Below are positions 1-45,738 of a stretch of DNA of 64,000 nt, piece by piece (within the stretch, counting starts at the first letter, position 1; the number at the start of each line of letters is the position of its first letter). The notes beneath the pieces are model-generated. The model saw only the letters and a list, made by a program, of their open reading frames with translations. It was not told the origin of the DNA and ran no database searches. Origin of the DNA: Lytechinus pictus (Eukaryota); contig NC_087252.1 in NCBI RefSeq assembly GCF_037042905.1, positions 5,396,001-5,460,000 of the forward strand, written 5' to 3'. The translations under genes were made by a program, and so were the position numbers.

Positions 1-1714
1 ACTTAATCTGTGAAATGAATAGTTTACCGATATCTAAAAATGCTCTAATATACCTGACACATGATTGATCTCATTTTCGACTTTTATTATTTCTTTCGAC
101 GTGCATGAATTACAAAAAGTCAATCTTAGAATGTGTACATTGACTGTATATACTCTAGTTAAAAATGAAAGAATTGTCAAGGCTTGGGAAATATCGTGTT
201 AAGTTTGCCCAATGTCATGAGTATCTCACTGTATGTTAAACAGATCACAGAATGACTGTAAACTTTGTAAATTCCACGGCTGCCTCCACGAACTGGGACA
301 TGAAGACGACATGGCGGCTCCTGATTTGTTAAAATAAAAATGATGGCAATATTTACAACAATTTTGAATCATACAACTGCGATAAACCAGGCTCTCGTGA
401 TTCGGCGGATAGTCCCTATAACCATTGCAAGAAAGCAAAACATAATTTCGTAATGACCTGGGCTGATTGGCACTTTGCGAGAAATGTCTCGTTTTTATAC
501 TTTCGGCCATGCAATCTAAAGCACTTTTTAAAAAATCTTTCTAACAGTAGTTTATTAATTTTAAGAATTAAAAAAATGTAGTTTCTGTGTTGAAAACGGA
601 AGGAAGATTAGAGAAGCCTTTCGGCTCTCAATCCAGCTCCTCTTCCTCCTCCTTTTGTATATACCATCCCTTTATCTTTCTTATTTCTAATAGTAATTCC
701 TGTTTTTATCGTGTAAATATTAAGTTTTTACCTTTTATCATAATGGGATCCTACTATAAGCTTTCCAGCTGTCCGAGATTACTGATTTTAATGCTACTGT
801 ATTTTATTTTGGTGACTGTATTCAATACAGTCAATAAATTGATTTTATTAGCCAATCTGGCTAAACAAATTCAATTCATCGATCAATCAGTCAATTTTCT
901 GCTGGTCCCATTAGCCCCCTTTCTCTGCTACTGACTATAGGTGATAGAGGGAGGGGGGGGGGGAATAATCATCATCTCACCGTGCTCACTGCCGCCCCAG
1001 ACAAGTGTGTTTGATATATTTTAATTGCAAGGGCTTCTCCTCCTCCTTCTATATCTCCCTGTTCTCTCTTTCTTTGTTTTTGCCTTTATATATCTCAAAG
1101 ATCAGCTCTCCCTATTTAAATTTCCACTGTCTTCTATTATTCATTCCCTCCTGTTATGGTCAAGCTTCCTCAAATAAAGCTTGCCCTAATAATATTTGCC
1201 CCTCTGTCATTCTACCGGCCTGCAATCTCCTTTTGGCCCCTTAATTCTTTTTTTTCTCTCGGCCTCGACCCCTCCCCAATCTATTTCATCCAACCCTTTT
1301 CACTCCCCCAACTCACCATGATTATAATTTATAATCACAAGAGCCTGGTAAAATAGGCATATTGAAGGTCTTACTTTCATTTTAACAAATAATTTGAGTG
1401 CCCCCCCCCCCGGCGGTCATGCAGGTCGGCTTCATATGTTCCATAATGGTGTAGGCGGTCGTGGAATTTACAAAACATATAGTTGTTTTATATTTTCTGT
1501 TTAACATATACCGAGATGCTGATGACATTGGACAAACTTAACACGATATTTCCCAAACCTATATTTTAACTATACAGTCAATGTTCTTGACATCAAGTTG
1601 ACTTATTGTAATTAAGGAAAGAAATAATAATCACCGAAAATGAAATGATTTATGTGTCAGGTATATTCCAAGCATTTTTAGACATCGGTAAAGTATGAAT
1701 TTCATAGACTGAGT
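1..1714. repeat. Long imperfect inverted repeat (foldback/MITE arms); left arm runs off the window start
   Basis: 1-227 is a degenerate reverse complement of about 1513-1714 (e.g. gggaaatatcgtgttaagtttg vs caaacttaacacgatatttccc). Confidence 0.7.
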
Positions 1715-2890
1715 ATCAAAATAAAACACTTAAACTGCACAGTGGTCATCGCGAGGGGAAAAGGTACGTAAAATATACCACCTGACTCCGGTATCGGACT
1801 GGATAATCTGAACGGACAGCCAGGGCGATCAGCCTCGTCTGCACACGCTAAAATTTAGCATTATGCGGCTCGCGTGCTAAGAATGAACTTGATTTGTCTG
1901 TTCATTACGTAACTCATCGTGAAAAATGTTATCCAACATTGATTGCTACACTCGTAATATTTAATGTTATGTACGATATACACAAAATTATGAGATGATA
2001 ACCCTTCTTCGGGAGAACAATGGTATAGCAGTTCGAATCTAACTATTTTCTTTTAGAAATATAACAAAAAACAACCTGATTTTGAAGGCCTAAAACTTTC
2101 TTATGAATGATGGAGAAAATAAGCTACCAACGTTATCAGGTCGGGAAAATTCTATTTAATGTATTAAGATATTTTTTAAAACAACAAAAAATTATGGGGA
2201 TATTGAAAATAAGGATTTTGAAATGCTATATAAAATTTACGCTATATTTTCATAAATTTTGGCATATTGTATCACTCATCAAAATGACTGGTAATTCGCT
2301 TTCTTACACACACTTGCTTATAATTTCGATATAGGTTGATACACCGATAGTCAATATAAATGATAAACATTCATAGTCTTACTAAATTTAAACGATTTCA
2401 TTAGTTTTTAGGATTTTAATATCGCAGACAATTTGGAGAGTGAGCAAGAAGATGCTCGTAAGCGTCGCTAACAAGACTGTTAGGCGACCTACCGCGAGAG
2501 GGCTTTTATAATGGCGGGCTCCACTGAGTTGATACATAGCCTATAGGCGGTTCACGTACGTGAACAACGCTCAGTCAAAGTTTGGCACCGCTAGACGAAA
2601 GTTCGTGAACGCTTGGGTCCGCGAGGCCAACGCAGAAATCTTGAATGCTGGACAACCGCTGCTTCGCCAGCGTTGCTCGGCCGGCGATTAAATGGTTCTC
2701 AAACTTTGATGGAGCGGTTGTAAGCGCTTTCCGAACGGACACGGGATTGCAGGAACGGTGCATTCATCCATTCATTGTTAAACAATAGCAATGAAGGGAT
2801 GTACTTTTGTATACCAGAGTAATTGGGGCGAGTACAATGAGTAGCTGCATAAATAGTACACTCTCTTTGTCATCATGATCATAGAGTAAA

Positions 2891-3471
2891 AGGGATGGTC
2901 CGGGCTGAACATATTTATATCTAAATACATAGAGTAGAATTCACTGAGCAACATGCCGAAAATTTTATCAAAATCAGATAACAAATAATAAAGTTATTGA
3001 AGTTTAAAGTTTAGCAATATTTTGTCATAACAGCCGTCATGAATATTAATTAGGTGGGCTGATGATGTCACATCTCCACTTTCCGTTTTATCATCTTATT
3101 ACATGAAATCAAATTTTTTTTCATTATTTCATATTTGTGTGAATAATATGTCTCCTTTATAATGAGATAAGTTGCAGCAATAAATATCTAATACACTAAA
3201 GCAATTGTCAATCCAAGTTTTCTAGTTCTTGGAGGAAAAATTTGAATAAACCTCATTTCATATAATCAAATACAAAAGAACAAGTGGAGATGTGACATCA
3301 TCAGTCCACCTAATGAATATTCATGACGGCTGTTTTCACAAAATATTGCTAAATTTTAAAATTCAATAACTTTGTTAATTGTTATCCGATTTTGATGAAA
3401 TTTTGGCATTTTGCTTAGTGAATTCTATTCTTTTTATCAAGCTATACATACTTTCAGCCCAAACCATCCCT
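2891..3471. mobile_element. Non-autonomous TTAA-type DNA transposon (Kolobok-like MITE)
   Basis: Termini AGGGATGG...CCATCCCT, TTAA on the right (TAAA on the left), long imperfect TIRs; same family as 43672-44256. Confidence 0.7.
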
Positions 3472-4249
3472 TTAAACCCCGTCGAGCCGACGCACAGTGG
3501 GCGGGGTATAACAAAAGTGCGCCAAAAGTCATTTTGGGCAATTTCATATTTCTAATTTGTGTCATGCCCAGCTTAAAGACAACACTTTGAAGAATGCTTC
3601 AGCAAAATATTTCATTCCGGAATTTGCATAAAGGTTGTTAATTTCCTACATCAAATCGTAAAATATGACATTTTGCGAAATGTCGCGTATATGACAACCG
3701 AGTTGAAAAGCAGGCCATTTCATAGGAGGTTTTTCATGTAGGAATCTGAAATGGCTCCTACATATTCCTAATATATTATTTTTTGTGTGAAAGGATTCAA
3801 AGTAGACAAAAGACACCTTTCACGGGGTTTATAGGATGATTATTCCTCGAAATAGGCTGAAAATTCATGTTTTTTGCATTTACATTAGAAACGTTTTGAT
3901 TTCCGTAGATTTCCGTCTAAATTCTATAAGCATCATTTTTCCCGATGTCTAAGCTTTAAGTCGATACCAAAATTTAGCTGCCCCTTTTTGCCCTTTTTCA
4001 TGTTACAGCCGATTTTACTTGACACAGCACTCCAAAAACTGTCATTTTTATACCGCTCAGTCATCGTAGCGAACCATATGGGTGTACATTGCCGTTCGCT
4101 TTTGCACGGCTAGGACAATTCCCCTTCCATTCCATGAAAATGACATTATTGAAAATGACACGCAAATAAGGGCTATTCCAACAACTCTTCCATAGATAAA
4201 ACTTACTTGTAGAATAATTTCAGCCAAAAACACTCCTCATAGTGATACA

Positions 4250-5221
4250 TTGGTGGTGTTATATACTTCGGGGGGGGGGGGGGGCAGGTGCCCCCCCCCC
4301 CATCGGCTGACCATCAAAAACAAAAAACGGGGAAAAAAAGAAAAAGAGGGAGAAAGGAATAGAAACGTAGTGGGAAAGAAGACATTATTGTTCATTATAA
4401 TGTTATATTATATCATAATTATGTTATGTTATATTACACTTTTTCATGACTACTTAAAGTAGTAATAAGGTCTTAATATAAAACAGTTCCTGTCCGTGCT
4501 TACGTTCGCGAGAGTGGATTGGTGAAATATGTCTGCTCTCCATTAATTCCTAGAATCAGTCCTTAAAATGTCCCTTTTTCTGATCTGAATATCAAAAATT
4601 TTCAGCTCGCGCTTCGCGCTCGCATCATTTGGTTAGTGAACTACGTATGGTTTTCGTGAATTCCTACAAACAAGCCTTAAAATGCTCCTCTTCAGGTCTG
4701 AATTTCCTTAATTTTCAGCCCGCGCCTCGCACTCGCAAGATTTGATTAGTGAGATGGGTATGTTAATCACGATTACAAGTGCTTTATGTGCATGTTTAGA
4801 TGTTATTCTAACAAAATCAGCAAGCGCTTATTGGCACTCACATCAGATGACTATGGTGAGATGTGTATACTCTTAATGGATTCCTAAGATATAGTCCTTA
4901 AAATCTTCCTGTTTGGGGGTTAATATTTACAAAAATTTCAGCTCGCGCTTCGCGCTCGCATTATTTAGCGAGACAGGTATCATGATTACAAAAGATTGAT
5001 TATAATGTCCCTTTTTAGGTCTGAATATCAAAAATTTTAAGCTCGCGCTTCGCGCTTGAATTATTTGACCAGTGAGATACATATCCGTTAAATGGCACTG
5101 TCCTTAAAATGTCTCTATTAGGTCACTATACCTGGCAACTGGGCGCGCTTCGCGCGCTCACTAAGTTACTCATTTTTTTTGCTGGTGCCCCCCCAATGCC
5201 GTAACCCACGGTACGCCACTG
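4250..5221. mobile_element. GC-tract MITE with internal cgcgcttcgcgc repeats, nested in the Transib-like element
   Basis: polyG/polyC tracts at left, repeated 'tcgcgcttcgcgctcgca' units, right end gtacgccactg; left end degenerate. Confidence 0.5.
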
Positions 5222-5237
5222 CACAAGTCAACACAGC

Positions 5238-7520
5238 TTCAATTCAATTCAATTCAATTATTTATTCAACCATCAAAAGGATAAAAACAGTACAATATAC
5301 AGTATTAACAAAGTATCAGAAAAAAAAACAAATAGATGGTTCGGAGACCCCGGAGAAGCAATGCTTATAAAAGGGGTCACCACGATACATTAATACATTA
5401 CAAATGACAAAATTAAAGAGTAAAAATCCTAGATCAAAATTAAAAGAAACACTCCTGCAGCCAAAAAAAAAAAGAAAAAAAAAAGAAGAATGAGGTAAAA
5501 AAAAGGGGGGGGGGGTGAAGCACTAATGTAAGATGTGAGATCACATGCATTCGATCAATAAACGGAAAATAACATTTTCCTGCATAAAGATCTAAATCTT
5601 GATAAAGTAGAACTATTTTTTATATCATTTGGAATTTCATTCCATAGTTTGGGGAAGTAAGTCTTAAATGAATTAAAAGCAATTGATGTTCGAACGTGTG
5701 GAGGGCGTAGGCATTTGCTGTGACGGGTAAAGTAAGAATGGATTTGAGAATTTGAAACAAAAATGTCACTGAAGAGAGGTGGTAAGATTTTGGCATTAAG
5801 CTTGTACATAAAAACTAGTGAATTTAATGATATCATATCTTTTAAAGTTAATAAATTTGATTGTAAAAGCAAAGGCTTTGTATGACTACTAGAAGGAGCA
5901 TTTGAGATAAGTCTTATTGCTTTCTTTTGTAAAATTGTCAATTTATCCAAGTGTGTTTTGAATGTATGACCCCATACAATGTTACAGTAATTTAAGTGAG
6001 GAAGTATGATACTGTTATAAAGAGTAATTAAAATTGAATGGGGAACAAAATGTCTAATTTTAGAAATAACTCCAATAGATCTTGAAACTTTGGTACAGAT
6101 TGAATTGAGATGTGGTTTCCAAGAGAGGTGTTCATTAAAAATTACTCCTAAAAATTGAAAATGTTTTACTTGTTTTATATTATGTACACCAAGAAAAATA
6201 TTTAGAGAATGAGGAGGGTCCCTCCTGCCTCGAGTTCGAAAAATGATATACTTTGTTTTGTCTAAATTTAAAAATAGTTTGTTGCAAACGAACCAATCAT
6301 TTAATTTTCTTAATTCATTGTTTGCTGATGAGACAAGATTATTTATTTTTTTATGAGATAATGTGACTGTTGTGTCATCAGCAAACAATGAAAAGTTTAG
6401 AATTGGGGAGCTATTAATTATATCATTAATGTAAACAAGAAACAGGAGGGGGCCCAACACAGAGCCCTGAGGAATTCCACAAGATATGTCTCTGTGTTGA
6501 GATTTGACACCATCAATCACCACATGTTGGTTTCTATTAAATAAATAATTAAGAAACCACTGAAGGGGAATTCCTCGAACTCCATAATCTTCTAATTTTT
6601 TTAACAATATGTGGTGATCAATGGTGTCAAAAGCCTTAGACAGATCTATAAAGACACCAAGGCAAAAATTACCATCATCTATTTCTTTTGAAATTATGTT
6701 AAATAAATTTAGGACACCAAGGTCAGTAGAAAAGTTCTTCCTAAATCCAAATTGTTGTGGTATTAAAACATGAGTAACTGTTAGAAATTTGTACAACCTG
6801 GTATATACTAACTTTTCTAATAACTTGGAAAAGAATGGTAATAAAGCAATTGGACGGTAGTTTACAATGTCATGTCGATCACCCCTTTTAAAGATGGGAA
6901 CAACTAAAGCAGTCTTAAGCTTATCTGGCACTATTCCTTGTGATAAAGATTCATTTAAGATATAACAAAGAGGGTTTACAATGGAATGAATACACTTCTT
7001 TATAACACGACCAGCAATAGAGTCAGGACCTGGTGAAGCAGATGTTTTCATGGACGACAGAACATTAATTATTTCAGTATTAGAAGTGGGATTAAAGAAT
7101 AAAGAAGAAGGTACAGGGTTTGATAAATAGTCAGTGAAATGAGAGACGGGATTGGGAATCTTTTCTTGCGTAGTTTTACCAACATTAACAAAATACTTGT
7201 TAAAAGCTTCACTGATTGATGTTTTACTAAAAATCTTTTCTTGGTTAAAATACATATGAGATGGAAGTGAGTCTTTCTTTTTACCTAATATATTATTTAT
7301 TTCAGACCAGGTTTTTTTCATATCGCCTTTTGTTTTGCTAAATAGGTTTTCATAAAAGATTTTTTTACACTGACGAATAGTACAGGTTAATGTATTTTTA
7401 TACTCAATATACTTATTTCGACTTTGAGAGTCTCTTTTTTTGATATAGCAACAATAAAGTCTATGTTTTCTTTTGATAGATTTCATGATACCATGAGTAA
7501 TCCAAGGTTTATTATACTTG
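5238..7520 (-). mobile_element. 5'-truncated CR1/L2-group non-LTR retrotransposon
   Basis: RT ORF plus 3' UTR ending in a (TTGAA)n tail at about 5238-5258; upstream in-frame KPWIT motif; no endonuclease domain. Confidence 0.85.
5555..7486 (-). CDS. LINE ORF2 reverse transcriptase, N-terminally truncated, 643 aa open
   Basis: Motifs SPGPDSI, YRPIALL, QFGFR, DLSKAFDTIDH, PQGSVLGPLLF, FADD, FLGV; CR1/L2-type C-terminus KLWNEIP. Confidence 0.92.
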   Translation of the reverse strand: MKSIKRKHRLYCCYIKKRDSQSRNKYIEYKNTLTCTIRQCKKIFYENLFSKTKGDMKKTWSEINNILGKKKDSLPSHMYFNQEKIFSKTSISEAFNKYFVNVGKTTQEKIPNPVSHFTDYLSNPVPSSLFFNPTSNTEIINVLSSMKTSASPGPDSIAGRVIKKCIHSIVNPLCYILNESLSQGIVPDKLKTALVVPIFKRGDRHDIVNYRPIALLPFFSKLLEKLVYTRLYKFLTVTHVLIPQQFGFRKNFSTDLGVLNLFNIISKEIDDGNFCLGVFIDLSKAFDTIDHHILLKKLEDYGVRGIPLQWFLNYLFNRNQHVVIDGVKSQHRDISCGIPQGSVLGPLLFLVYINDIINSSPILNFSLFADDTTVTLSHKKINNLVSSANNELRKLNDWFVCNKLFLNLDKTKYIIFRTRGRRDPPHSLNIFLGVHNIKQVKHFQFLGVIFNEHLSWKPHLNSICTKVSRSIGVISKIRHFVPHSILITLYNSIILPHLNYCNIVWGHTFKTHLDKLTILQKKAIRLISNAPSSSHTKPLLLQSNLLTLKDMISLNSLVFMYKLNAKILPPLFSDIFVSNSQIHSYFTRHSKCLRPPHVRTSIAFNSFKTYFPKLWNEIPNDIKNSSTLSRFRSLCRKMLFSVY

Positions 7521-8199
7521 ATAAAGCACGGTTGATATTTTTCAGATTTTAAAGATTTTTTGTTATATAAATCTAATTAATGATCATTTTGATGCCATAA
7601 AATTATTTTCGGCATCTCGTACGCACTTTTTAGGCATGTGAGAAGCATAAACCAACATTCACTCTGGTCAATCTTAAAGTAGCACATAATTGTTTAGCGT
7701 AATTTGTCTTCTCACAGCTAGGTTTTAAGTAGCCAATCAAAATTTGGTATCAAGGTGACGTCATATCGGCTTTAAATTATTTTCAGTCGATTCTACGCTC
7801 AAAATTACCCATAATCAACATGTTAAAGTAAAAATCTAACACGGATATAATTTTGGCGCACTTTCAAATCCTTCTGGCCCACTGTGCGACGCCCACATGC
7901 GCAGAACTCCACTCTGTCAACGGTCGAGTCACCGCTAAACCAACGCTCGCGACCGCTCGCCACTGTTAAACCAACGCTAAAGCTACACTGGCTTCAGCGG
8001 TGCACCGCTAAGGCAACGCCCATGTTTTCTTCGATTATTCCCCCAATATTGTGAGCGGTGACGAGCGTTGTCGAAATTCGACCCTCTCTCCCTACCGCTC
8101 CATGACCGCTCCAACAACTCTCGGGCGGTGTGACCAGGCCTTTAGTGTCAAGTTTGTGAGTTTGCCAGTAGACAATATACTTGTTTTCGTCATATTTAG

Positions 8200-8420
8200 A
8201 TTTAGCCCGGCTATTAAAGTTTCTGCTTTTGCTTTTGTAATTAATGACCTGAAATCCTCATTCTTGCCAGTAAGGTTGTGTCATCTGCGTACCGCATATC
8301 AATGGTATTTTCCCCTTACTGCCTTGCCTATATTTGTTTTCTCAAACAGAGCTTGTATCATAATATACTAGCCATATATATTGAAAAGGTACAGGGATTG
8401 AATGCACCTCTGTCTTACGC
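8200..8420 (-). mobile_element. Degenerate RTE-like LINE RT fragment (paralogous to 42092-42292)
   Basis: Minus-strand reading resembles VRQxCxxSxxLFNIY...MRYADD with stops and shifts. Confidence 0.6.
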
Positions 8421-8711
8421 AATTTCTGTCTCCCAAAAAATAAGATCGACGTTTTACCATAATTGTCACCCCAATATTGTGATTCACCCCGCCCCCCCCC
8501 CAAAAAAAAAAGGGAGGTGGGCTGTTCCCCAGAATTATTTTCAGCGCGTATTCATACTGAGTGAGGCTTGGTCTTAATTCCAGTGTATTGCTAATCTTTA
8601 GAACACTAAAAGATACATCTCAACCGTTACAAAGCAAGATAAGTCGCATTACCTGGCCTGAACGTATGAGCTATGCTTCCTAGTTACTGAATGACACGAA
8701 ACTGTATATTA

Positions 8712-11067
8712 ATACAGGATAGATGAGGCATAACCTTGTTTTTTCATATATACAATATTTTTTTTATGGTTTCTTGTCAATTCGAGGGTGCTGATTACGA
8801 TCTGAGTGAGGCCACTCGTGTAACTTTGAGCATTTTCGGCGAACTGGCAAAATCCAATATGGCCGCCAACATATGCATATTACCCATGAAAATTACAGAT
8901 TTGCCAACAAATTGTCTATTAAATGTATGTATTTGTGCTGCAGGAGTAAAATACTCTCTGAAAAAAAAATTATGACAAAATATTTATTTCTTGATACTCA
9001 AAGTGGCCGCCACAGACCTCTGCATACCATATTGTGTACAATATGAATGGGGAAAATTATTTTTCACAAAGGCGATCACTAAACTGCAAGTAATTGTGAT
9101 CTATGGACAAAGTGATATATGAAAAATCATCAATGCTAAAATGATATATCATTTATTATGTCATGTATGGGAAAATTGTTGTATTTAATATTTAAAATAG
9201 CTGCCACTGGCCCAAATAATATTATTTTCTATGGCAAATGGGCCAGTAAAAATAGCAAGACTGAGCACTAAAATGCATATTATTAAGAGAAACGAGTGAA
9301 ATACTAAAACACAATTGCTAACGAAATATATCATTTAATATGCCATGTACATGTATGTGATAAATGCTGTATTTTGATATTCAAAATGGACGCCAAAGGC
9401 CCTAATAGTATTATATACAATGAGAAAATGGACCAAATAAATCACAAGAGTGAGAACTGAAATGCATTTATTTGTGATGAATAAATGGGATACTGTCTAA
9501 AATACATATTTTTAAACTAGATATAAAAAACAATTATCATTCAGGTTTAAAGTTTGTGTTTAATACTGTATTTTTACTTTCAAAATGGCCGCTATAGACA
9601 TTGATTGCATTATGGACAATGCAAACTGGGAAAAAAAAATTACACGAGTGAGCACCATAAATGCCCGCAATTGTGATCTATGATTAAAATACTGTCTGAA
9701 AGCATAATTTCTAACAAGATGTACAGATAGGTGATAATTATTGTATTTTGAAAGTCAAAATGGCCGCTACAGTCCCCAACAGTGTTATGTACAATGTAAA
9801 TGGGGACAAATGATTTTAACAGATGTTGGCTTTGCTTGAACAAATGGTGTTGTATGACTGAAATATTGTCTGAAAACATGATTACTTACGAAATATGTCA
9901 TATTATCTAAAATTTGGGTGATAAATACTGTATTTTGAAAGTCAAAATGGCCGCTACAGTCCCCAACAGTATTATGTACAATGTGAATGGGGACAAATGA
10001 TTTAAACAGATGTTGGCACTGCTTAAACAAATGGTGTTGTATGACTGAAATATTGTCTGAAAACATGATTACTTTAGAATTATATCATATTATCTAAAAT
10101 TTAGGTGATAAATACTATATTTCAAAATTCAATATGGCCGCCATATGCCCTTAATCATCTGTCCTCATTCAAATTGTACATAATACAATAAAGTCACATG
10201 GCGGCCATTTTCAATTTCAGAATGCCGCATTTATCACCTTAAATGCACCAGATATGATATATCTCGTTAGGAACCATGATTTTAGACAATATTTCACTCT
10301 TACATCACAATTATATGCAATATTTATGGTCAAGCAAAGCCAAATTCTGTCAAAATTATATGTCCTAAATAATACATAATACTTTAAGGACCTATGGCAT
10401 CCATTTTGAATTTCAAAGTATAGCATTTATTACCTCCATGACCAATATGTGATGTATTTATTTAGAAATCATGTTTAAGACGATATTTTTACTCATACAT
10501 CACAGTTACATGCATTTTATGATTCTAACTCTTGTAAAAGTAGATTCCCTCTACGCATGTAACCTAATTTAATTAGGGCTTGTATCAGCTATTTTGAATG
10601 TCAAAATACAGTATTTATCACTTACATGGCAGAAGAAATACTATATTTCATAAAAATCATGTTTTCGAATAATGTTTTATTATACAACAGGATTATATGG
10701 ATTTCATAGTGGAGTAAATATAAATTCTTAAAATATTACATGTCCCTATTCAAATTGTAGATAATTCTGTTGGGACCTATAGGGGCCATTTTCAATTTCA
10801 CAATTCAGCATTTATATCATGCATGGAAAAATAAATGATATGTTTCGTTAGAAAACATGTTTTCAGACATTATTTTACTCAGTGATCACTCTTGTGAAAA
10901 TCTATTTCTCCAATGGCATTGTACATAATGTATAATTGGCCCATGACGGCAATTTTGAATGTCAAAATGCAGCATTTATCACATAAATTGCATTTACATT
11001 TCGTTAAAAATTATGTTTTTAGCCAGTATTCCAATCGCTTATCTTAATACTAGTAATATGCATTTTA

Positions 11068-11108
<41 letters not shown>

Positions 11109-12147
11109 GAAATAGTCTGCTTCGGAATATGGAATAAAATAATCATAAATGGTAAGGTATATATATATATTGGATTTTATTGCAACAAAAACTATCAAAA
11201 TACAATCACAAGCAGTCAAAGACTGTTTACATGTACAATCGAAACATAACAAAATATAAAGTAAAAAATTATAAATACATATTAAATACGATACAAATTC
11301 ATATAAATGAGAAATAAATCTACCATAGGTAAATACCAAAGACCATAACATAATTACTACAAGGTGTCACCAAAGAAGAAAAAGGGGGAATTAAATATTA
11401 GGAAGAAAGAGGAGAGAGAAGAGGAAAGAGATGAGCAAATAAGACAAAAGAGAAGGGAAAGCAAGAGGTGGAAATAGGAATAAGAGGCAATCTTAAGAAT
11501 AAAAAAAAACTCATACAATACTAGACATTTCACAATGGTCACTTACATATAAATAAAGTAGTAATTCAATTGAATCGAGCACAAAAAGGGAAAAGGAGAT
11601 ATATACCCACTCTTGTGAGTTTTTTGTTACCCATTAACATTGTACATAATAGGCATTTGATGGCTTTTTAAATATTAAAATGCTTCATTTATTGCATACA
11701 TGACATAGCAAATGATACATTTCGTTAGCAATCATGTTTTCTTCATTATTTCACAAAAAAATCTCAATTACTTGCATTTAGTGCTCACTTTTGTGAAATT
11801 AGTTTCCCCATTCATATTGTACATAATAAAGAATACAGGGGTCTATGGCGCCCATTTTGAATATTTTTGTCAAAAATCGTTTTTTTCAGAGAGTATTTCA
11901 CCCCTGCAACACAAATACATACATTTTATAACCAATGTGCGGGCAATTTTATGATTCTCATGGGTAATTTGCATATTTTGGCGGGCATGTCGGATTTTGC
12001 CAATTTGCGGAAAATGCTCAAGGTTACACGAGTGGCATCATTCAGATTCGTAAACAGCACCCTCTCATTGACAAGACACCATAAAAATATTGTATATATG
12101 AAAAAACAAGGTCTGATTAATTTTCTATGGGGCCTATCCGGGACTAT
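8712..12147. mobile_element. About 3.4-kb foldback element with long TIRs and internal caaaatggccgc repeats
   Basis: 8733-~9100 is inverted at ~11750-12112; internal ~187-bp direct repeat (9720-10085); block absent at the paralogous site near 44360. Confidence 0.75.
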
Positions 12148-12220
12148 ATAACAAGATAAGATCATGTTACGATGATATTGACTATATTAAACCCATTATT
12201 ATATTACCATCTTTTAACAG

Positions 12221-12352
12221 GTTCAGAGGATCGTTTGACCTGGATAGGTGTAAGCGTGATAAGTGTGGCTGTACTTCTACTAGTAGTAATTGTCCTGTTG
12301 GTATGCCTGATCTATCACCGAATATGTGGACGCTTGCCCTGTTTAACACGAG
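12221..12352 (+). CDS. Receptor copy A, transmembrane exon
   Basis: ttttaacAG|gt ... cgag|GTaaag, phase 1/1; encodes LTWIGVSVISVAVLLLVVIVLLVCLIYHR; homologous to 44454-44594. Confidence 0.85.
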
Positions 12353-13138
12353 GTAAAGATTGTGCTAAGTTGGTCATCATATATTTTTCTGTTAATTTCT
12401 TACAACGAACCATTCACTGTTTATTATGATACATACTGTATTCATTATCACTATCCACAATCAACCATCGCACATCCTTACCATGAATTTGTCACTTGAT
12501 TATTTCCTCTTTCTTTCAACCAAATATTTTCAATTGAATCATTGGTTTATTCTGAAAGAGAACAATATCTATATCTACGTACATGTAAGTCCATCCCATT
12601 GGCCCTTAAAATAGATATTCAGTACTTACTATAGAGATTGTTTCTCACAATTATTTCTGGGTTTTCAACCCGTGATATTTTGAGTCCATACTTCCCTGAC
12701 ATAATAGGTTTTATTTTCACATTTCCTATCGAATATCCATGAAAAATATTGTACCCAGGAATCACTGAAATCGATTGAATTAATTGTTAATGATCCACGA
12801 AGACCTGTAGCTTACATGATTATCGTCGACGTTCACTCGGGAAATGTAAGAGGGTAGATGTCAATCGGTCAGGGGAATTCCTTCCATCCTTTATTCATTG
12901 ATATTACATAAGATCATGGAAAGTGCAAGAATGTAGTCTTTAAGTATTCCAGCTCTAAAAGGTAAAGGGAGCACAAAGTTCAATACTTCTCTTGCGTGTT
13001 GTTTCTTACATGTTGGTATGACCCCATATACTGTTAATCGCCTCATGAAGTACTTTTCCTGTATCTTCAAAGTCGTTTGTGCGACAGCATAAGACGAGAT
13101 CCAACCATTTTTTATATCGATGTTTTATTTTTCTTCAG

Positions 13139-13520
13139 AATATAAAGATACAAAAAGAAGCAAGAAGGATGGGGTATTGAAGGCAGTAGAAAGTAACTGT
13201 GATGATGAATCTGACCAAGATACCGAGAGAAGGGAGGCTGATGAGATGTTAGCGACAGTCGGGTATAGTGATGGAGGTGAACCTGACAGAGACAGGATGG
13301 AGAGCAATTGGTGGTGTTCGTGTGGGAACTGTCCTGTGATGCAGCCTGATGTACAGTGCCTTTGTTGCCGTGAACTCAAGAGATGTCGTGAAATTCAGAC
13401 CAATGGGTGTATAATTGATTCTAAAGAATTCCAAGTCCTATGTCTTACCAAACCATCTCTTCGTGTGTTTCTCTCTTTGAGGAGCAAAGACCATCGAATT
13501 CCTGGAAATATGGGGAACGA
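13139..13520 (+). CDS. Receptor copy A, acidic linker plus N-half of P2X7-ballast-like (ZCD) domain
   Basis: ttcttcAG|aa ... aacga|GTaag, phase 1/2; WCSCGNCPVM...CLCCRE...CII...F..LCL motif. Confidence 0.88.
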
Positions 13521-14140
13521 GTAAGCTTTTTATTGTTTTTATTATTAAGAGAGGGGGGAATTTCAGTTAAAAATTTTAAGTGATAAAGAAAATAAAATAA
13601 CATACCAAACAAAACATGTAGAAAAGAAGAAAGGTGGGGGGGGGGGGTGGTAAAATGATAAAAAGATACAACTGTAGTAAAAACAATAAAGTGGTTAAAA
13701 AATCCGATGGAAATAAAAAGTAAGGGTTGATGTTCATTTGGCACCTGGACTGAACTTACTTTTTTGGCTGCAAAATAGATTCACCGCACACCTTACGACT
13801 GGTCCCATGTTACGATTTTTGAATAAAATCACACTTTGCTCTTTTTCGGAAAATATGAATGGAATTTTCTTTTTATTTGAGGTATTGATTAATTGAATGA
13901 ATACTCATAATAATTTCGATGATTTCGAGCCTTTATTTGGATTGAAGGTCAAATTACATTCATATCGTAGCAAATTTTAAGATTTAGAACCGAGTCTTTC
14001 TGCCCAATTTTGACCTTTCCTCACCAGAATTTGGCATGCTTCATGTGGGTATTTGCATTGCAGCATTTGGTAATTTTTACCGAGGCAAATTTCCATATTG
14101 GTGTCCTTATGGTTCTTTCCTTTTCAAATGGCCATTTCAG

Positions 14141-14441
14141 ATCATATCGGTTTGCCGCTTACAGGATTTGGTCAGATTACTTACACGGATATATGGGTAA
14201 AGGAGTTCGAAGGCCTCTTCCAGCCTGCGTGGTGACACGAGTACGCCAAGAGTTCCCCGAGGAGACAGGTGTCTACGTTGGCTTCGAGTTGGGGAAACGT
14301 GGGGAGAAGGTAATCGAAATGTCCCAACTGTTACAATATAGAATCTTCCGGGAGATAGTGACACCTAACAATAAATTTGCACACATAAACTCGTGTGTTA
14401 AAATAATGAGGGGTAAATGCAGTTGTCAAAATCTGTTTTAA
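14141..14441 (+). CDS. Receptor copy A, last coding exon, C-half of ballast-like domain
   Basis: catttcAG|a tca tat cgg, phase 2 matches; YRFAAYR..W...G.GVR.PLPACVV..VR.EFP...G.YVGF; TAA at 14439. Confidence 0.88.
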
Positions 14442-14705
14442 TGATAATGATAACAATGGATATTTAGAGGCGCTAAAACAGAAAGTACCATAGCGCGTAC
14501 AATGTATCAATAATGATTAAACTTTTGCAATAATAATCGCAATATCCAACATAAAAGGGAAATTAATTATTGAGGAATGAAGTACATTTTAAGGGAAGAT
14601 TTGAAGCCAAGAATCCTGGAAGCTTTTCTTACTGGAAGAGGGATGGCATTCCAAGACTTGGCAGCTGCTACAGCAAAACGTTTTTCAACAGAGGAGAGGT
14701 TCGAC
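14442..14705 (-). mobile_element. Short 3' fragment of an L2-like LINE
   Basis: Minus strand reads RFAVAAAKSWNAIP, the typical L2 ORF2 end, followed by a 3' UTR and an ATT-rich tail. Confidence 0.5.
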
Positions 14706-17700
14706 AGTGTCTTGTGCTAATATATTTTTAATAATTCCATCCCACCAGATAGAAAGAGAAAATTCCAACAAGCACTGCACTCCAAGATTTCGTTTGAAAT
14801 CGGATGTAACATACGAAACTTATGTAATTTTTAAGATTTGCATAATTTCACAAAATAGTTATATGCACATCTGGATCCTTGTCGATAAGGAAATATGGAG
14901 ACTGATGACGTAACCAACTCACTATTTCGTTTCCATTTTATTATATGGGATATGAAGTATAAACTTTTTCTCACAGGTTAAAACAATGATTATTCCTCCT
15001 GAATATGTAAAGAACATGTTATGGTTTATTTATGTTCGTTTGTATTGTCAAATCTGTAAAAAGTGAAATATTGAATAATCCATCAATAAAAAAGGAAATA
15101 AATTGTGGTGAGTGACATCATCGAATTTCTAATTTGCATATCACTGAGGTGTGTGTGCATATAACTGTTTTGTAAAAAAAATAGGGAAAAAATTGAAATG
15201 TCATACCTTTCTTATTTTACATCAGATTTCGATAAAATTTTTTGTGTTAAATTTTTCTCTATTGATTCAAATGATTTTTTTTTCTGGGATTGATGACCAC
15301 ACGGTTATCTTGCAAATTACCTAATTAGCTGATACCTTACATATTAAAGGTTTTCAATATCAATATTGCCCTAACTACAAAAATAATAACCATAATAACA
15401 TCGTTTGTGGAAACTAGGCCTACCATGGTAGTAATATAAGGCAATGATAATATCAAATGCCCCCAAAACATAACGAAACCAAAAACAAGAAAAAAAAACC
15501 ACGTCGAACCTCGTAAACAATTGAAACGCAAAAGCATAGCTGTCACCCTTTATGTTCATCCATTTCTTGACAAAAAAAAAGACTAATGATATCACGAAGG
15601 CATAATCTGATCACCGTAACGTTATCGAGCAACGTACATGTACCATCAGGTGGTGAAAAATAGTTCCTTACGTGAATTCGCTCTTTATTTTCTATTCCGA
15701 TTACATTGATTTTGCTATGCACGGAATGTGGTGTCAGGAGGGGATGCAGGATTTTACAAAGGAGGAGGGGGAGGGGGGCTCATTTTCAGGCTGAAAATTT
15801 GACATGCAAAAAAGGGTTCTTTCATTCGTGGAAATATTACATGTAATTAATGTATATATTTTTAAAGGGGCCTAACTTTCAAAATGGGGTCACACTTGAA
15901 TAAAAACGGTGTTTTTACATTACAAATGTCGATCATGACTCTAAATAGAGGGGGCATGGGACGGCGGCGCCCCTTTGGATCCGCCAGTGCGTGGTAGGGA
16001 TTTAATATATCATGCAATACTATCATACTTGTATCTGCTCATAGGAATCAAAGTGCCTCTTACCCGAACAATGATGAACATCCAGGAGACAGCATCCCTA
16101 ATGCAGACACTGGAGCCGAATGAAACTTTGTTCAACGTGTGGGTATTGGGACAGGATGAGTGCGAGTACAGCTTGATGTTACCCCAATCCGGCATGGCTA
16201 ACCGGCTCTTCTTGCGTTGGCTGTGTGATTTCAGTCAACCCTTTCTATTATCTATTATTCTCTTTTTTTAAAGAAGATGTTTGTGTATGAAATGTTACCT
16301 TCTCTAAGTTTCCCTTTCACCCATTGTGTACGTTCACTCAACATTGTCATGATTGTCTATTATCTATTATTATCTCTTTTTTTAAGAAAAAGTTTGTGTC
16401 TGAATGTTCTCCTTTTTCTTAATTTCCCTATCACCCTACCGTATCAAAATATACCATACAAAATACGCACCCAAGGTATCCATTTAGGCAATATATTCCA
16501 CATAATTCATGTGGTATAATACTTTCTGTATACTTATAAGTATGATTGTGCAGAGCAAGTGCATATTTATATAAAATTTACATATACATTTTAAAACATA
16601 AGCTTAAGCTTAGTTATGTATATAATGTACAATGTATATGATAGATATCGATTTGCTTTTCGGAGTATACTGTACACGTTTTTTTTTTTTTAATAATCTG
16701 CCCGGAGAACGCAATGACGTTTGTTTTATTTAGGTTTTTTTTTTAATTTACAGAATTTTCCACACTACTATAACAGACTTTTAATGATATCCATTTAACT
16801 CTATGATACATCGTTTATGTATTTTTTTCATCGTACCACCGTGATACCAAAGTACACAATGAAGGATGAATTGCAGCATGATGGATTACTGCTAATTAAT
16901 GAATGATGAAAAAAACAGGTATCCTACATTTTAAAAGAAAATCCAACAGAGCATCGTAAGGATGTAAAATACGTAGTACTAAAGAAGGTTATTTCTCGCA
17001 TCGTTCAGAAGAGCACCTTATTTTTCTGAAAACCGTCGACTGCTTATTACTATCAGAAACCCACATGTACATGAAAAAGTTGTCTTATAGTTAATATCAT
17101 TCTACTTATAATCATTTTTCCTGGGTTCCAAAAATAAAGTGATTTACATTTACAAGGGCACTGCACAGATCACTAAATCAAAATTAGCAATATTTTTTTT
17201 ACAAAGGCTGGCTTCAATAAACTTTACATAGATGACTTAATTGTCATGCTATATTACTTTTTATACGTTGCAGGGCGGCTGTGCTGAGGCTATGCTGCTT
17301 GGTCCTTTTGGGGGACCGCCGCGCGTGGTGGTGGTTTTCAGCAATGGACGGGTGCCGTTTCGACATCATTGTTGTTAATGACTTTGAGTGGTGTGTAATG
17401 TGGATTGGTGTGATGTGTTGTGAGTTTTGTTGTAGTGTGACGTGTTTTTGTAATGTGTGGTATGGGTTTTTTTGTTGTCGAGTTTTTGTAATGTGTTTAA
17501 TAGTATAGTTAGTGTGGGTGTTTTTTTTTGTTTTTGTAGTGTGATGTGTTGTGATTGTCCAATGTCAACCGGGGCCCACGGATGTGTTGGACTGGCACCG
17601 TGTTTGGGGCGTTTTCCCCATCGGCACCAGGTAAAGTTTCAGCGCAGCTGCCCTTGCAACGTACTATTATATTGTTTTTGGTTAGTATTAGGTCACTCTG

Positions 17701-22500: not shown

Positions 22501-23700
22501 TCTTATATCTGGGAATTTGAGGATGCGTATAAAGAGATGCGCTCCGCCATAATAAAGATAACGCTGGATCCGGGCGCTGGATATGCTTTTCAAGGGGTGC
22601 GATAATTAGTCAAAATAGTAGAGCAGAGCCTTGCGCCTGATATAAAGATGACAACAGTGCAACCATACTTTTAAAAAGAAGAAATATCTTCATCTTTATG
22701 AGTTTTGCTCTATATTCACGATTCAGATGATAATAAAAATGAGTGACTGACTCTTCCTTCAGGGTGCAGCAAATATACTGTATTGCCCCCAAAACAACCA
22801 TATTGCCCTCCTCTAAGAACGAAGGCCAACATTGCCCTGTTGCGGGCAATTTATTTGATGTTCTCTTCAAACATTAAACTCAAATAATTATTCCTTAATG
22901 ATTTTCTTTTCTCATTTACAACCCGCCCATCCTTTTTTTCGGGGGGGGGGGAGGATAATGCACGAATGAATTTCGATCGATGGATGGTTGAAAACAAATG
23001 GCAATGTAATGTAATGCATCATATTAGATAAACAAAAATACATGGAGTTAAAACTGTGACCCTATACGTTCTTTGGAAATTTTTATACACACTGTACCTG
23101 CTTTAGCCATAACAACAGGGAATTGCTATTCATGATAATATCAACAGCATGGAGCACATGCGCACATCCTTATGTAAATGGACAATGAGTACTCAATATT
23201 CTGCCATTGCAGATGACTAAACCCTCTACGACTATCTTTCTACGTTGGTGTTTGTGAAATATCATAGAACCTGATTTCAGTCGTGCTTCTGCAGGAGAAC
23301 GCAATTGGAGCATGAACCCCAGTTGAAGGTTTCAAGTCTACCTGGAGCCAAAACCAAACAAATCTGGATCTACCAAAAGCAGCTTATATATGCCGCAATT
23401 ATTAATTTGAACATGTAATAATCTCCGAACGAATCGCAATAGGTTTTAAATTGCCTCGTGATGCTCTGTATCAAAATTTGTTCTTTCCTGAAAGCTTGCT
23501 ATTCGGCTTAATCATGTATCGAGAGCGAGAATCTGCTTGATGAGGAGAAAGACTGCAGTTTTGCTGTTGTAAGAAACAATCAAAGACGGTTGACAGCAAA
23601 TGGATAATGGAATATCATCGATATTTTTAATCATTCAACCGCATTCCACAGCTGTGCAGTTCATTTCATATCAATCATGCTAAATTATTCTGCAGCCACC

Positions 23701-23767
23701 ATGTTCTCACCAAACAAAATACGTTTCATCTTCATCGTTGTCATTGTCATGTGTAGCATTTCAGAAT
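23701..23767 (+). CDS. Receptor copy B, putative signal-peptide exon
   Basis: gccaccATG context; MFSPNKIRFIFIVVIVMCSISE then t|GTGAGT donor, phase 1 compatible with the Ig exon at 39356. Linkage across a 15.6-kb intron is inferred. Confidence 0.65.
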
Positions 23768-30800: not shown

Positions 30801-31451
30801 ATTGCGTTGCTATGGTAACAGTGTACCATTGCAAAAATAAGGTAAAAATCTTGCAGTTAGAACTACTTCCTCTGTTTTCATCCGATTCTCATGAAATTTG
30901 GCACCCACATTGGTCTTGAGGTGAAGATGTCTAAGACACATTTTTGTGTGTCTTTCAGAAATCTTGTTGCCATGGTAACAACATATCATATGGTGAAAAT
31001 TGGGGGAAAAAAACTTACAATTCAAACTGCTTCATCAGTTTTCAATCAGTTCTCATGAAATTTGGCACACACATTGGTGTTAAAGTATAGATGTACGAGG
31101 CACTTTTTGTGTGTGTTTTAGAAATTGTGTTGCCATGGTAACAACATATTATATGGCAAAATTTAGGTAAAAACCTTGCAATTTGAACTACTCCATCAGT
31201 TTTGAACCAATTCTCATGAAATTTGGCTCACACATTTGCCTTGAGGTAAAGATGTGCAAGAACCATTTTTTATGTGCATTTGTCAGAGAGTGCATTGCCA
31301 TGGTAACAACATATGATAGCCAGAAATGCAGGAAAACTTAGCCATTGTGGATCAAACTACTTCCCCTGTTTTTAGGCAGTGCTCATAAAAGTTGGAAAAA
31401 AAATTCATCTTGGGGTAAAGATTCATATTAAATTCTAAATGTCTTCTGAAC

Positions 31452-31845
31452 CAGTGCTTCTCCACCTTTTTCTACTCGATGACCACTTTGAGAACTAATC
31501 TGCATTCGGAAATGTCCGGTAAATGGGCGACAATTAACTACATACACAATATGCATGCACATGAGGTTTACATCAAAGTTAGATCGAAAACATCATATAG
31601 TAAAGTGTGCATGTATATGCTTTGCAACATGCATAATACCAAAAAAGTGTGCTTAGATTTTGTTTGACCCAAGTAGACCGATCGGACAAATCATATTAAC
31701 ATGTTCAGACAGGTATACGGTACGTGTATATACTATAGTTTTCCCCTATTCTTATTTTCTCTCTCTTTCTTGAGCTTATCACGGCCCACCTGCAAGTGCT
31801 TCGCGGCCCACCAGTGGGCCGAGAAGCACCGGCTGAGAAGCGCTG
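31452..31845. mobile_element. hAT-like MITE
   Basis: CAGTGCTTCTC...GAGAAGCGCTG, 8-bp near-TSD ttctgaac / ttctaaac. Confidence 0.7.
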
Positions 31846-31853
31846 TTCTAAAC

Positions 31854-33919: not shown

Positions 33920-33951
<32 letters not shown>

Positions 33952-34029: not shown

Positions 34030-34063
<34 letters not shown>

Positions 34064-39355: not shown

Positions 39356-39688
39356 CATTCTGGCTTCACACAGAGAAGTCTTTAACAGCGGTGCGAGGCG
39401 GAAACATCTCCCTACCCTGTAATTTCTCCGTTTCTGCACGTGCAGTCTACTGGTACAAACACGACTTCACTGGAGCACCAGACGATGGAACATCACTCGT
39501 AGCCCGATATTATAGGGGCATTACAGAACCTGTACCGGGCTTTGAGAGGTTCAGCATCACCAATGACTACAGTTTGATCATCAGAAATGTAACTGTTCAA
39601 GACGAGACAACCTACTCATGCCAAGTTGTTGGGATCAATACCATTGATGTTGAAACGGAAAGAGGCTATACGGACTTGAGAGTTATAG
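39356..39688 (+). CDS. Receptor copy B, V-type Ig domain exon
   Basis: tgcAG|ca ... atag|GTaag, phase 1/1; GGNISLPC..VYWYK..RFSI..YSLIIRNVTVQDETTYSC. Confidence 0.9.
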
Positions 39689-40888: not shown

Positions 40889-41148
40889 CCTTAGCAGAGC
40901 CCCTTGAACCAATCATCGAGATCATAGAGCCCTGTACTTTCACAGCGCAAGGGGGATGCGTCTACCATGTTAACAGGTCTACCATTGGCAAGGACACGTC
41001 GGAGGATGTAATACTTGTTTCTAAACTTTCAAATGTTCGACCTCTACCAAATCTTACTTGGATTCAAAGCGATGGAAGATTAAATAAAAATGCAACTTAC
41101 CAGACGCAGGAGAAAGATGGGCTGTTCAGCATTTCATCACAAATTCAG
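40889..41148 (+). CDS. Receptor copy B, second Ig domain (C-type-like), first part
   Basis: cattAG|cc ... cag|GTttct, phase 1/0; SNVRPLPNLTW...DGLFSISSQIQ. Confidence 0.8.
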
Positions 41149-41427: not shown

Positions 41428-41533
41428 GTATCCAGGTCTCATCTTGATCACCACTATACCTGTCAAGCTGAAGGGGAAGCCGTGAATGGAACCTCATCAG
41501 TGGTCATTTCTTTTGAGGATTCTGTTACACATG
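41428..41533 (+). CDS. Receptor copy B, second Ig domain C-terminal part (not in the ORF track)
   Basis: ttgacAG|gta ... catg|GTagg, phase 0/1; VSRSHLDHHYTCQAEGEAVNGTSSVVISFEDSVTH with the F-strand YxC. Confidence 0.82.
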
Positions 41534-44453: not shown

Positions 44454-44594
44454 TTTCTAATGATCGTGTGACCACTATGGTTATAAGCGTGATAATCGCG
44501 ATAATTCTACTAGTGGTTATCATGGTTATTGTAGTCCTGTCGGTAGGCCTGACCTTTTACCGAAGTCATGGCAGGTGGCCCTGGTTAACAAGAG
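44454..44594 (+). CDS. Receptor copy B, transmembrane exon
   Basis: cctacAG|tt ... agag|GTaac, phase 1/1; MVISVIIAIILLVVIMVIVVLSVGLTFYR. Confidence 0.85.
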
Positions 44595-45434: not shown

Positions 45435-45738
45435 ATCCCGAAAGAAGCAAGACGAATGGGTTATTCATGGCAGTCGAAAGTAATGTTGATGATGATGAAC
45501 CTGACCAATACAGGAGGGAGAGCAGTAGGTGGTGTTCGTGTGGTAACTGTCCTGTGATGGAGACTGATGTAGAATGCCTTTGTTGTCGTGAACTCAAGAG
45601 ATGTCGGGAAATCCAGACCAATGGATGTATCATTGATTCTAACAGATTTAAATTCCTTTGTCTTGACAAACCATCTCTGCGTGTGTTTCTCTCTTTAAGG
45701 AGCAAAGACCATCAAATTCCCGGATATATGGAGAACAA
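45435..45738 (+). CDS. Receptor copy B, linker plus N-half of ballast-like domain
   Basis: WCSCGNCPVMETDVECLCCRE; donor aa|GTaag phase 2. The acceptor used by copy A reads AC here, so the start is placed at an in-frame AAG 9 nt downstream. Confidence 0.75.

Follow-up and report, generated by a model that had tools for sequence, protein, structure and literature searches.

A tandem array of single-pass Ig genes in the sea urchin Lytechinus pictus whose tails resemble the P2X7 ballast and Kolobok KolX

Trimer formation and Ca-calmodulin binding count among the traits of the P2X7 ballast (PMC9574498). ZCD proteins other than P2X7 are typically short and without a transmembrane (TM) region (PMC7016195). 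The two papers on the origin of the domain name as its carriers only P2X7, stand-alone proteins of the nanor kind and two proteins from ticks (PMC9587614, PMC7016195). In a study of sea cucumber, AjNLRC4 is described with a NACHT tail, two TM segments and a function established by experiment (PMC8699970).

The window analysed here was a stretch of 64,000 nucleotides of Lytechinus pictus DNA (NC_087252.1, positions 5,396,001 to 5,460,000, forward strand). It lies within an array of five tandem copies (A, B, c1, D and E; G000:C8, 5.34-5.61 Mb) with 70-100% identity, a count that includes copy E, possibly an assembly or haplotype duplicate, so that the array may number four. Copy A is probably one of five tandem single-pass receptors (signal peptide, IgV, IgC2, helix, linker and KolX/ballast) derived from an Ig-TM gene and a Kolobok KolX, with a recognition role and a predicted zinc-bound signalling tail. 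No description of an Ig-TM-ballast protein was found among the papers listed in literature searches, which took in few subscription journals. Outside Lytechinus no such fusion was found in word-based searches (4, 12 and 3 matches), which are insensitive to distant relatives. Among the best 150 of 1259 HMMER matches, of which 14 ballast and 10 Ig matches were scanned with Pfam, P0004 alone had a best stretch that reached across both halves.

Exon structure and transcripts

The tandem gene family of the original prediction was recovered on C8 as five full copies and a truncated sixth. Its introns and flanks could be aligned between copies A and B as 11 collinear blastn blocks (8155-17119 against 42032-56430; 65-79% identity, E<=7e-9). 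Gene models were open in 5/5 copies and complete from leader to stop in 4/5, and the exon-length differences among copies were all multiples of 3. The remaining 19 of 24 matches, other than the five array copies, were at most 47% identical.

Copy A gave an open model of 500 aa, whose exons for the leader, IgV and the split IgC begin some 14 kb before the window and end 2 kb short of it (C8:5382319-5393907, equal to window -13681 to -2093). These ectodomain exons, which had been placed outside the window, were located upstream of window base 1 using tblastn and a splice-site check. A headless pseudogene was ruled out, the upstream exons being intact. The exons of copy A, with the supporting evidence, were as follows.

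C8:5382319-5382409, +, leader exon
C8:5390096-5390428, +, IgV exon
C8:5391308-5391567, +, IgC-1 exon
C8:5393802-5393907, +, IgC-2 exon
1..12220, +, 3' part of the IgC-2/TM intron (14.3 kb); join across the intron predicted from splice sites
12221..12352, +, TM exon, phase 1/1; hydropathy peak 3.64, joined to 13139 in one contig
13139..13520, +, acidic linker and Cys-rich first KolX/ballast part, phase 1/2; PF20478 30.9 bits, joint 12352/13139
14141..14309, +, second ballast exon, phase 2/0, end corrected; donor in 5/5 copies, joint 14309/16045, Pfam 25.3 bits
16045..17226, +, terminal exon of 9 codons, stop and 3' UTR (end approximate); contig cover 16043-17226

The exons of copy B all lay within the window.

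23677..23767, +, leader (signal-peptide) exon; P0004 1-30 at 100%
39356..39688, +, IgV exon; Pfam V-set 56 bits, joint 39688/40889 in 2 contigs
40889..41148, +, IgC exon 1, C2-like, with Ser in place of the first canonical Cys
41428..41533, +, IgC exon 2; joint 41533/44454 in 3 contigs aligned at 80% likeness
44454..44594, +, TM exon
45435..45738, +, linker and ballast part 1; translation of the model equals P0004
47106..47280, +, ballast part 2
52273..52338, +, terminal exon, coding part and stop; P0004 471-491

In the linker exon of copy B the ancestral acceptor was lost and an in-frame acceptor 9 nt downstream was used instead. The TM of copy D was short and weaker (hydropathy peak 2.37).

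For copy A, the two predicted exons 12221-12352 and 13139-13520 were correct, as was the acceptor at 14141 (AG/GT ends, phases 1, 1 and 2, open frames), but the third exon ends at 14309 and not at 14441. Extension to 14441 as the main form was ruled out by a phase-0 donor (AAG|GTAAT) conserved at the end of exon 3 in 5/5 copies and by a contig joint from 14309 to 16045 at GT..AG. In the transcript observed, the interval 14310-14441 is intron, so the argument previously drawn from a divergent extreme C-terminus is withdrawn. Contig cover extended over 16043-17226, so the distal sequence formerly taken as flank is 3' UTR. The terminal-exon peptide of copy A is also the C-terminal end of NCBI model P0001. 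An isoform reading through the 14309 donor may exist; the interval 14301-14654 had some RNA depth, and in L. variegatus the gene model continues through the equivalent donor.

None of the runs found to contain the sequence was recorded as RNA. The RNA evidence came from a single run whose library type is not recorded and was trusted on GT..AG joints, which were seen for V-C, C-TM, TM-ballast and ballast-terminal exon. Upstream Ig exons and a transcript were thus both found, the contigs spliced from TM to ballast being of an A/E-type allele that is not fully identical to copy A. Ig was joined to TM solely on copy B sequence. No such joint for the A/D/E type was among those listed for this run, nor was joint 13520/14141 in either contig alignment, areas without cover being uninformative in both cases. 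In the NCBI annotation the copy B fusion was already present as P0004, with no gene name, and the model for copy E (P0001) covered the TM-ballast part only. Copy A is complete and apparently without annotation.

The ballast tail and Kolobok KolX

Exons of copy A matched Pfam PF20478 (P2RX7_C) at the bit scores listed above, and P0001 at 66.5 bits (gathering cut-off 23.5). The seven conserved cysteines, a predicted two-zinc site, were present (7/7) in 5/5 copies, the cysteine number of the domain being taken from PMC9587614. Copy A kept 17/17 near-invariant KolX residues, all seven cysteines included, and copy c1 had lost three of the 17. The structure model was that of P0001 (copy E), which is 98% identical to copy A in the ballast domain, and its pLDDT was mostly >90 over residues 111-230. 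Using Foldseek at E<=0.001, the matches were exclusively P2X7 chains (14). The fit of the model to P2X7 had Z 13.8 and rmsd 2.8 A over 128 residues. Two of the five GDP-contact residues of rat P2X7 were kept (R546, R578), and the positions of H547, R574 and K583 held F, V and E/N; the same GDP-site pattern is seen in other invertebrate ZCD (PMC7016195). A P2X receptor fragment was ruled out, as no P2X domain was found in the family proteins by Pfam, which detected V-set/C2-set Ig instead. Beyond its signal helix the receptor has a single TM helix, not a P2X ectodomain between two TM helices.

On shared gene structure and nesting in the tree, the tail is probably KolX-derived. The second KolX exon began at the same codon as that of the receptor, after AG plus one base, in 9/9 loci examined, and the phase-2 donor of the KolX intron, a phase common to the receptor tail, was visible in six of the nine. 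Tree support was 98/83 for receptors with P0019 and 99/94 for receptors with all Lytechinus KolX. In a tree built without P2X7 the domain nests among Lytechinus KolX, which suggests that its capture was separate from that of P2X7.

Dispersed ballast genes were convergent with THAP and transposase-like ORFs; the elements that hold them are multicopy and end in inverted termini flanked by TTAA. Features of Kol0 Kolobok (TTAA duplication, RR..YY inverted termini, transposase) were found at both ends at C6, C15, C19 and C29 and at one end at C1 and C16; they were not clean at C13. Near the receptor ballast exons no Kolobok termini were found when 12353-17200 of copy A and 44595-47700 of copy B were compared with 11 such loci by blastn; apart from interspersed repeats, the only match was 65 bp of an exon. 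A Kolobok KolX origin of the tail had not figured in the original prediction.

Selection and candidate roles

Copies A and B were 84% identical in the ballast (119 codons), 82% in IgC, 78% in IgV, 57% in the linker and 45% in the TM. The expected divergence of TM and linker was confirmed, but "nearly identical" overstates the ballast, which is close to the Ig domains. As had been proposed, selection on the ballast was purifying, though moderately so, and not near neutrality (ML omega 0.40, different from 1 at p=1.4e-4); it was not particular to that domain, the Ig domains also being under purifying selection (omega about 0.58, estimated also as 0.62 with p=0.0045). TM (1.17) and linker (1.20) looked neutral. 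Mismatch between A and B was 25-38% in introns against a ballast pN of 8%.

By the origin that we favour, KolX would have been captured by a sea-urchin Ig-TM gene, in the intron that follows its TM exon. The TM exon would have been spliced to KolX, the start and stop of KolX lost and a new terminal exon gained; tandem duplication would have come next, with patchwise exchange among copies or alleles. The V domain might then bind a microbial or cell-surface ligand and cluster the receptor, and Zn2-stabilised tails might associate, recruit a partner and relay a signal, with GDP/GTP or Ca-calmodulin as a possible gate, as for P2X7. Taken by itself, this mechanism is a serious possibility, a little short of an even one.

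The same architecture and origin would also fit an adhesion or self-marker molecule (nectin/CD200/B7-like V-C2) in which the ballast serves as structural scaffold or for trafficking and not in immune signalling, a reading that we consider unlikely. The Atlas look-alikes were CD200/CD80/butyrophilin-like (all <0.9, leads only), sister genes are auto-named nectin-like, and positive selection was not found in the V loops (omega 0.60 in CDR-like columns and 0.50 in framework, from only four sequences, at low power). In these loops synonymous divergence was raised as well. Adhesion is opposed by GTPase and death-like tails among the sisters, by fast copy turnover, and by V loops that differ in length and sequence between copies (variable columns 20/31, framework 22/79). 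An echinoderm Ig-TM-NACHT receptor, moreover, binds microbes via its Ig domains according to PMC8699970. An immune or recognition role of the array is presumed.

Slightly less probable still is that intron insertions between IgC and TM have split genes A, D and E into secreted Ig and membrane-anchored ballast proteins, leaving the full receptor to B and c1 only. That intron is 14.3 kb long in A, 14.1 kb in D and 25.8 kb in E, but 2.9 kb in B and 3.6 kb in c1; NCBI models are split for D (P0006 and P0002) and E, and an Ig-to-TM joint was observed on copy B sequence only. Yet donor and acceptor are canonical, in frame and phase-matched in A, D and E; the inserts of A and D are not common to both, the LINE in the intron of A is antisense, and purifying selection still acts on the Ig exons of both A and D.

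That the tail is a domesticated transposon control or decoy, which binds Kolobok transposase or KolX and tethers it at the membrane or senses it, is improbable. Kolobok-type copies are 98-99.8% identical, indicating recent activity in this genome, and the tail keeps residues conserved in KolX; but its stem branch is long (0.74), identity to the nearest KolX (P0019) is 47%, the KolX N-terminal motif is missing, and a selected, intact ectodomain would be superfluous in such a role. Recent, mostly neutral exonisation drifting to loss is the least probable, for although omega is not low, the fusion is found in Lytechinus only and the Cys-rich part is missing from the L. variegatus model, omega is significantly below 1, the cysteines are kept throughout, and all five copies lack stops and frameshifts even as their introns diverge.

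The receptor reading has a wider, rather doubtful extension: KolX may be a recurrent plug-in signalling module that three or more membrane receptors owe independently to Kolobok transposons (P2X7 of vertebrates, the Lytechinus Ig array and, in a frog, an MHC class I-like protein) and that acts below the membrane as a zinc-built, nucleotide-gated clustering switch. The frog protein is P0047 (XP_068105447-50), modelled with a ballast in four NCBI isoforms. If so, the urchin array would allow ballast function to be read directly in a young system that has no channel. A second, independent, selected fusion to a single-pass receptor would make the poorly understood P2X7 ballast/KolX testable without the channel. 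The sea urchin is genetically tractable, and with donor elements recently active in the same genome the capture could be traced exon by exon. New here are the complete copy A, its corrected 3' end, the selection test and the frog MHC-I-ballast model, which hints at repeated capture.

Comparison with known systems

The receptor has the traits of echinoid V-C2-TM proteins: leader, V-set, split C2-like domain and single TM. The canonical IgC disulfide is lost: P0005 and the five copies alike have Ser for the B-strand Cys, which sisters P0008-P0015 keep; the L. variegatus model P0005 is without the whole Cys-rich part. The sister gene P0009, which lies head to head, shares the V, C, C and TM exons and has a phase-1 donor where its TM exon ends, but bears another tail (58% identity overall in alignment A2; V exon DNA 85%). 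KolX appears to occupy the slot where sisters carry a coiled coil and ubiquitin-like domain (P0009), a death-like domain (P0012) or a P-loop GTPase (P0163/P0018).

With AjNLRC4 (PMC8699970) the array shares an extracellular Ig part and an unusual intracellular domain in an echinoderm membrane protein, a likeness of architecture. Compared with KolX of Kol0 Kolobok (PMC9587614) and nanor/ZCD proteins (PMC7016195), the tail nests in the clade and has an identical phase-2 intron, the start and stop of KolX being swapped for splice sites to host exons. With the vertebrate P2X7 ballast (PF20478; PDB 6U9V, 8TR6, 9E3O) it shares the same fold over model residues 97-238, seven cysteines, the R546 and R578 equivalents and a C-terminal position below the membrane helix. 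Residues 393-470 of the P2X7 ballast have no clear counterpart in the urchin tail, and in place of the P2X channel the urchin protein has a single-pass Ig ectodomain.

The copy A gene in its tandem array

Copy A was judged to be a real, functional-looking paralog in a young family of transposon–receptor fusions. The first exon of the ballast (the P2RX7_C/KolX domain named after the P2X7 cytoplasmic tail) had 24 genome matches among 70 candidates scored, five at contig C8 (NC_087252.1; assembly G000) 5.35–5.61 Mb with 70–100% identity and the other 19 elsewhere with at most 47%. Across 464 kb that include the window (C8:5396001–5460000), five copies (A, B, c1, D and E) were found on the + strand, each with single IgV and TM exons and with two exons apiece for IgC and ballast. 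The original prediction of a gene family, for which Ig exons and more copies were to be sought upstream, was confirmed in this way, and the ectodomain exons of copy A, which it had placed outside the window, were located (leader, V and C at window −13681 to −2093).

Gene models of the five copies
Copy A: 500 aa, open from leader to stop
Copy B: 491 aa, open from leader to stop; same as NCBI XP_063959511.1 (database entry P0004)
Copy c1: 458 aa, open from V to ballast end; leader and terminal exon seen, outside the model
Copy D: 509 aa, open from leader to stop
Copy E: 500 aa, open from leader to stop

By anatomy the products appear to be type I receptors. NCBI models on the array carry the species label Lytechinus pictus, and copies D and E are divided in them. 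A less likely rival reading is that A, D and E are split genes, against which the open frames of all three count. Full-length copy A protein was not found among the matches of the protein database searches. Leader-like exons were also seen at C8:5246875 (−), 5298603 and 5324920, the last being likely the leader of copy c1 and the first two having no gene assigned to them. In a truncated sixth copy (C8:5616590–5635160) the V exon is missing, and what is present is a leader with the greater part of intron 1; its leader equals that of B in protein, and its intron 1 is >99% identical, stopping shortly 5′ of the V exon position.

The three predicted copy A exons were recovered with canonical sites and phases 1, 1, 2, as was the tandem alignment with B, in 11 collinear blastn blocks (8155–17119 versus 42032–56430). 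Both ballast exons of A scored above the Pfam P2RX7_C cut-off. Since a phase-0 donor stands directly after the ballast core in every copy, and 14309 is spliced to 16045 at GT..AG in one contig of sequencing run X1, the last 9 codons of the copy A protein lie in a fourth exon. The predicted divergent extreme C-terminus is accordingly intronic in the observed transcript. A second, read-through isoform past 14309 is possible, because there is some depth at 14301–14654 and the L. variegatus model has a read-through end.

Features in the window
12221–12352, 13139–13520 and 14141–14441 (+): copy A exons as predicted
14309 (+): copy A donor after the ballast core
14310–14441 (+): the 44 codons predicted as C-terminus
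16043–17226: contigs marking the copy A 3′ UTR
3493–7890: element in the copy A IgC-TM intron, presumably Transib-like; its termini read CACAGTG and the target duplication is 5 bp
5555–7576: 673-aa reverse-transcriptase frame (Pfam RVT_1) of an antisense LINE inside that element
8733–12112: foldback element of 3.4 kb, immediately 5′ of the TM exon; the inverted arms are long and inverted subrepeats lie inside
30647–35593 and 47711–51891 (the latter in the copy B last intron): large inverted-repeat elements with internal tandem repeats
45420–45440: copy B, ancestral acceptor of ballast exon 1 lost and an in-frame one 9 nt downstream used
58854–59996 (−): single-exon rhodopsin-family GPCR frame, 380 aa (Pfam 7tm_1), just downstream of copy B

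Origin of the tail

KolX, an accessory gene of Kol0 Kolobok transposons, is described as resembling P2X7 476–595 and was proposed to have given rise to the P2X7 ballast and to nanor (PMC9587614). Sixteen dispersed ballast loci were taken, eight of these were extended, and a ninth on C11 was added. All eight extended loci had a long convergent transposase-like ORF; with Pfam (n=4) one passed Mutator, two were sub-threshold MULE and one gave none. THAP was present in 3/3 upstream exons scanned. The C11 locus has DDE_Tnp_1_7 fragments instead. Element copies on different contigs were 98–99.8% identical over 11–21 kb, TTAA-flanked inverted termini were found at both ends on C6, C15, C19 and C29, and the Kolobok-type elements of this genome appear recently active. 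At least three families of such large, near-identical elements (THAP, transposase-like ORF, KolX) were noted, with sites at C6:19.09–19.11 Mb, C13:23.09–23.12 Mb, C15, C19, C29, C1 and C16.

The second KolX exon begins at the receptor's codon, after a phase-2 intron, in 9/9 loci examined. In a tree of 66 rows (six receptor, six Lytechinus KolX, 52 drawn from the other alignment rows and two frog, P2X7 being left out), the receptors formed a single clade on a long stem with the KolX protein P0019 as sister (98/83), and both nested inside the Lytechinus KolX clade (99/94). The nearest Ig relative, the sister receptor P0009 (head to head at C8:5151117–5212976), shares the V, C, C and TM exons. 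Its TM exon likewise ends at a phase-1 donor, and the exons beyond encode a coiled coil and a ubiquitin-like domain, which points to the intron following the TM exon as the place where KolX was captured. L. variegatus P0005 has Ig, TM, linker and second ballast exon, so the fusion predates the split from that species; the Cys-rich part is absent. An Ig-TM-ballast fusion was not found outside Lytechinus within the limits of the sequence searches made. The receptor architecture and KolX origin are considered very probable.

In the frog Hyperolius riggenbachi, P0047 joins MHC class I alpha, C1-set, TM and P2RX7_C (four NCBI isoforms, P0047 and P0159–P0161; XP_068105447-50), and the frog rows fall outside the Lytechinus clade of the tree. 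It may be a further case, possibly independent, in which a vertebrate receptor of the Ig superfamily captured KolX, or the fusion may be a gene-model artefact. Other models (P0149 of Pelobates fuscus, P0131, P0118) join P2RX7_C to KRAB-like (sub-threshold), THAP or PAP2-like (sub-threshold) parts; the THAP one is probably a merged transposon model. KolX domestication was already known for P2X7 and nanor. No description of an Ig-TM-KolX receptor was found among the titles that literature searches listed, and such a protein is already in NCBI, unnamed, for copy B.

Constraint, exchange and transcription

Identity of A to B was 78% in IgV, 82% in IgC and 84% in the ballast, which had been predicted to be nearly identical; the predicted divergence of TM (exon 45%) and linker (57%) held, and mismatch in introns and UTR was 25–38%. 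Purifying selection on the ballast was upheld by a pairwise A–B dN/dS of 0.33 (bootstrap 0.16–0.62), not near 1. In a codon model (null kappa taken from a grid; each domain judged against 1 on its own), omega, approximate because the copies exchange sequence, was 0.40 for ballast (LRT 14.5, p=1.4e-4), 0.57 for IgV (p=0.017), 0.58 for IgC (p=0.036), 1.17 for TM and 1.20 for linker, the last two not differing from 1. The Ig sets were run without copy E, whose Ig sequence is the same as that of A. Neutral drift of the fusion is an unlikely rival here, against which the ballast value speaks. Exon-length differences among copies were all multiples of three, and conservation among KolX-like proteins was slightly lower at the ballast columns that vary between copies (p=0.05). 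CDR-like V loops were more variable (20/31 columns versus 22/79; p=0.0009); positive selection was not detected in them (omega 0.60), synonymous divergence being raised there too.

A and E differed by 0–0.5% across most of a 50-kb block, by 2–7% at the leader edge and by 2–6% over the TM and ballast exons (window 11000–15500 versus C8:5604000–5608500), and insertions of 11 and 3.5 kb also set the two apart. The pattern is consistent with duplication very recently and patchwise exchange between the copies; the pair may instead be an assembly duplicate. The divergent patch, sitting exactly on the TM and ballast exons of an otherwise ~99.8% identical duplication, suggests gene conversion or old alleles.

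RNA evidence came from one run (X1, type guessed), contigs being judged by intron skipping at predicted GT..AG sites. Among the joints listed, copy B sequence at 80% likeness gave V-C in at least two contigs and IgC-TM in at least three; copy A sequence at 92% gave TM-ballast and ballast-terminal exon in one contig each. Of the differences listed, the TM-ballast contig agrees with E at 10/11 in the ballast exon and at 1/3 in the TM exon, and is a mosaic of A and E types. An A/E-type allele is shown to be expressed, rather than A letter for letter.

Proposed function and comparison with P2X7

In relatives the same ectodomain is joined to a tail of the P-loop GTPase, death-like or ubiquitin-like kind. 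The Ig-TM-NACHT protein of a sea cucumber is described as binding microbes and driving phagocytosis (PMC8699970). In the proposed mechanism, the V domain would bind ligand, ligand-bound receptors would cluster, and their associated, predicted zinc-bound tails would pass on the signal. This signalling role is put at slightly under an even chance; adhesion, or transposon control by the tail, would be the rival functions. Further related V-exon clusters, with no ballast match nearby, lie at C8:4.24–4.33 Mb and 8.27–8.46 Mb and C9:1.33–1.53 Mb; NCBI models of V-exon relatives have GTPase, death-like and coiled-coil tails.

The AlphaFold model of copy B (P0004) shows two beta-sandwich domains besides a signal helix and a single long helix; confidence in the tail is low because the underlying alignment had almost no ballast rows. 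That of copy E (P0001) is confident in the ballast part, and P2X7 was its only match at E≤0.001 (Z 13.8, rmsd 2.8 Å, 128 residues). Near-invariant KolX residues were kept at 17/17 in A, 16 in B and 14 in c1, and seven cysteines in all copies. As the P2X7 ballast is given as residues 393–595 (PMC9859053), the urchin receptor would carry only its C-terminal part. The soluble P2X7 ballast is described as a GDP-stabilised trimer broken by Ca-calmodulin (PMC9574498); of the five rat P2X7 GDP contacts given in PMC7016195, two are kept in the urchin tail.
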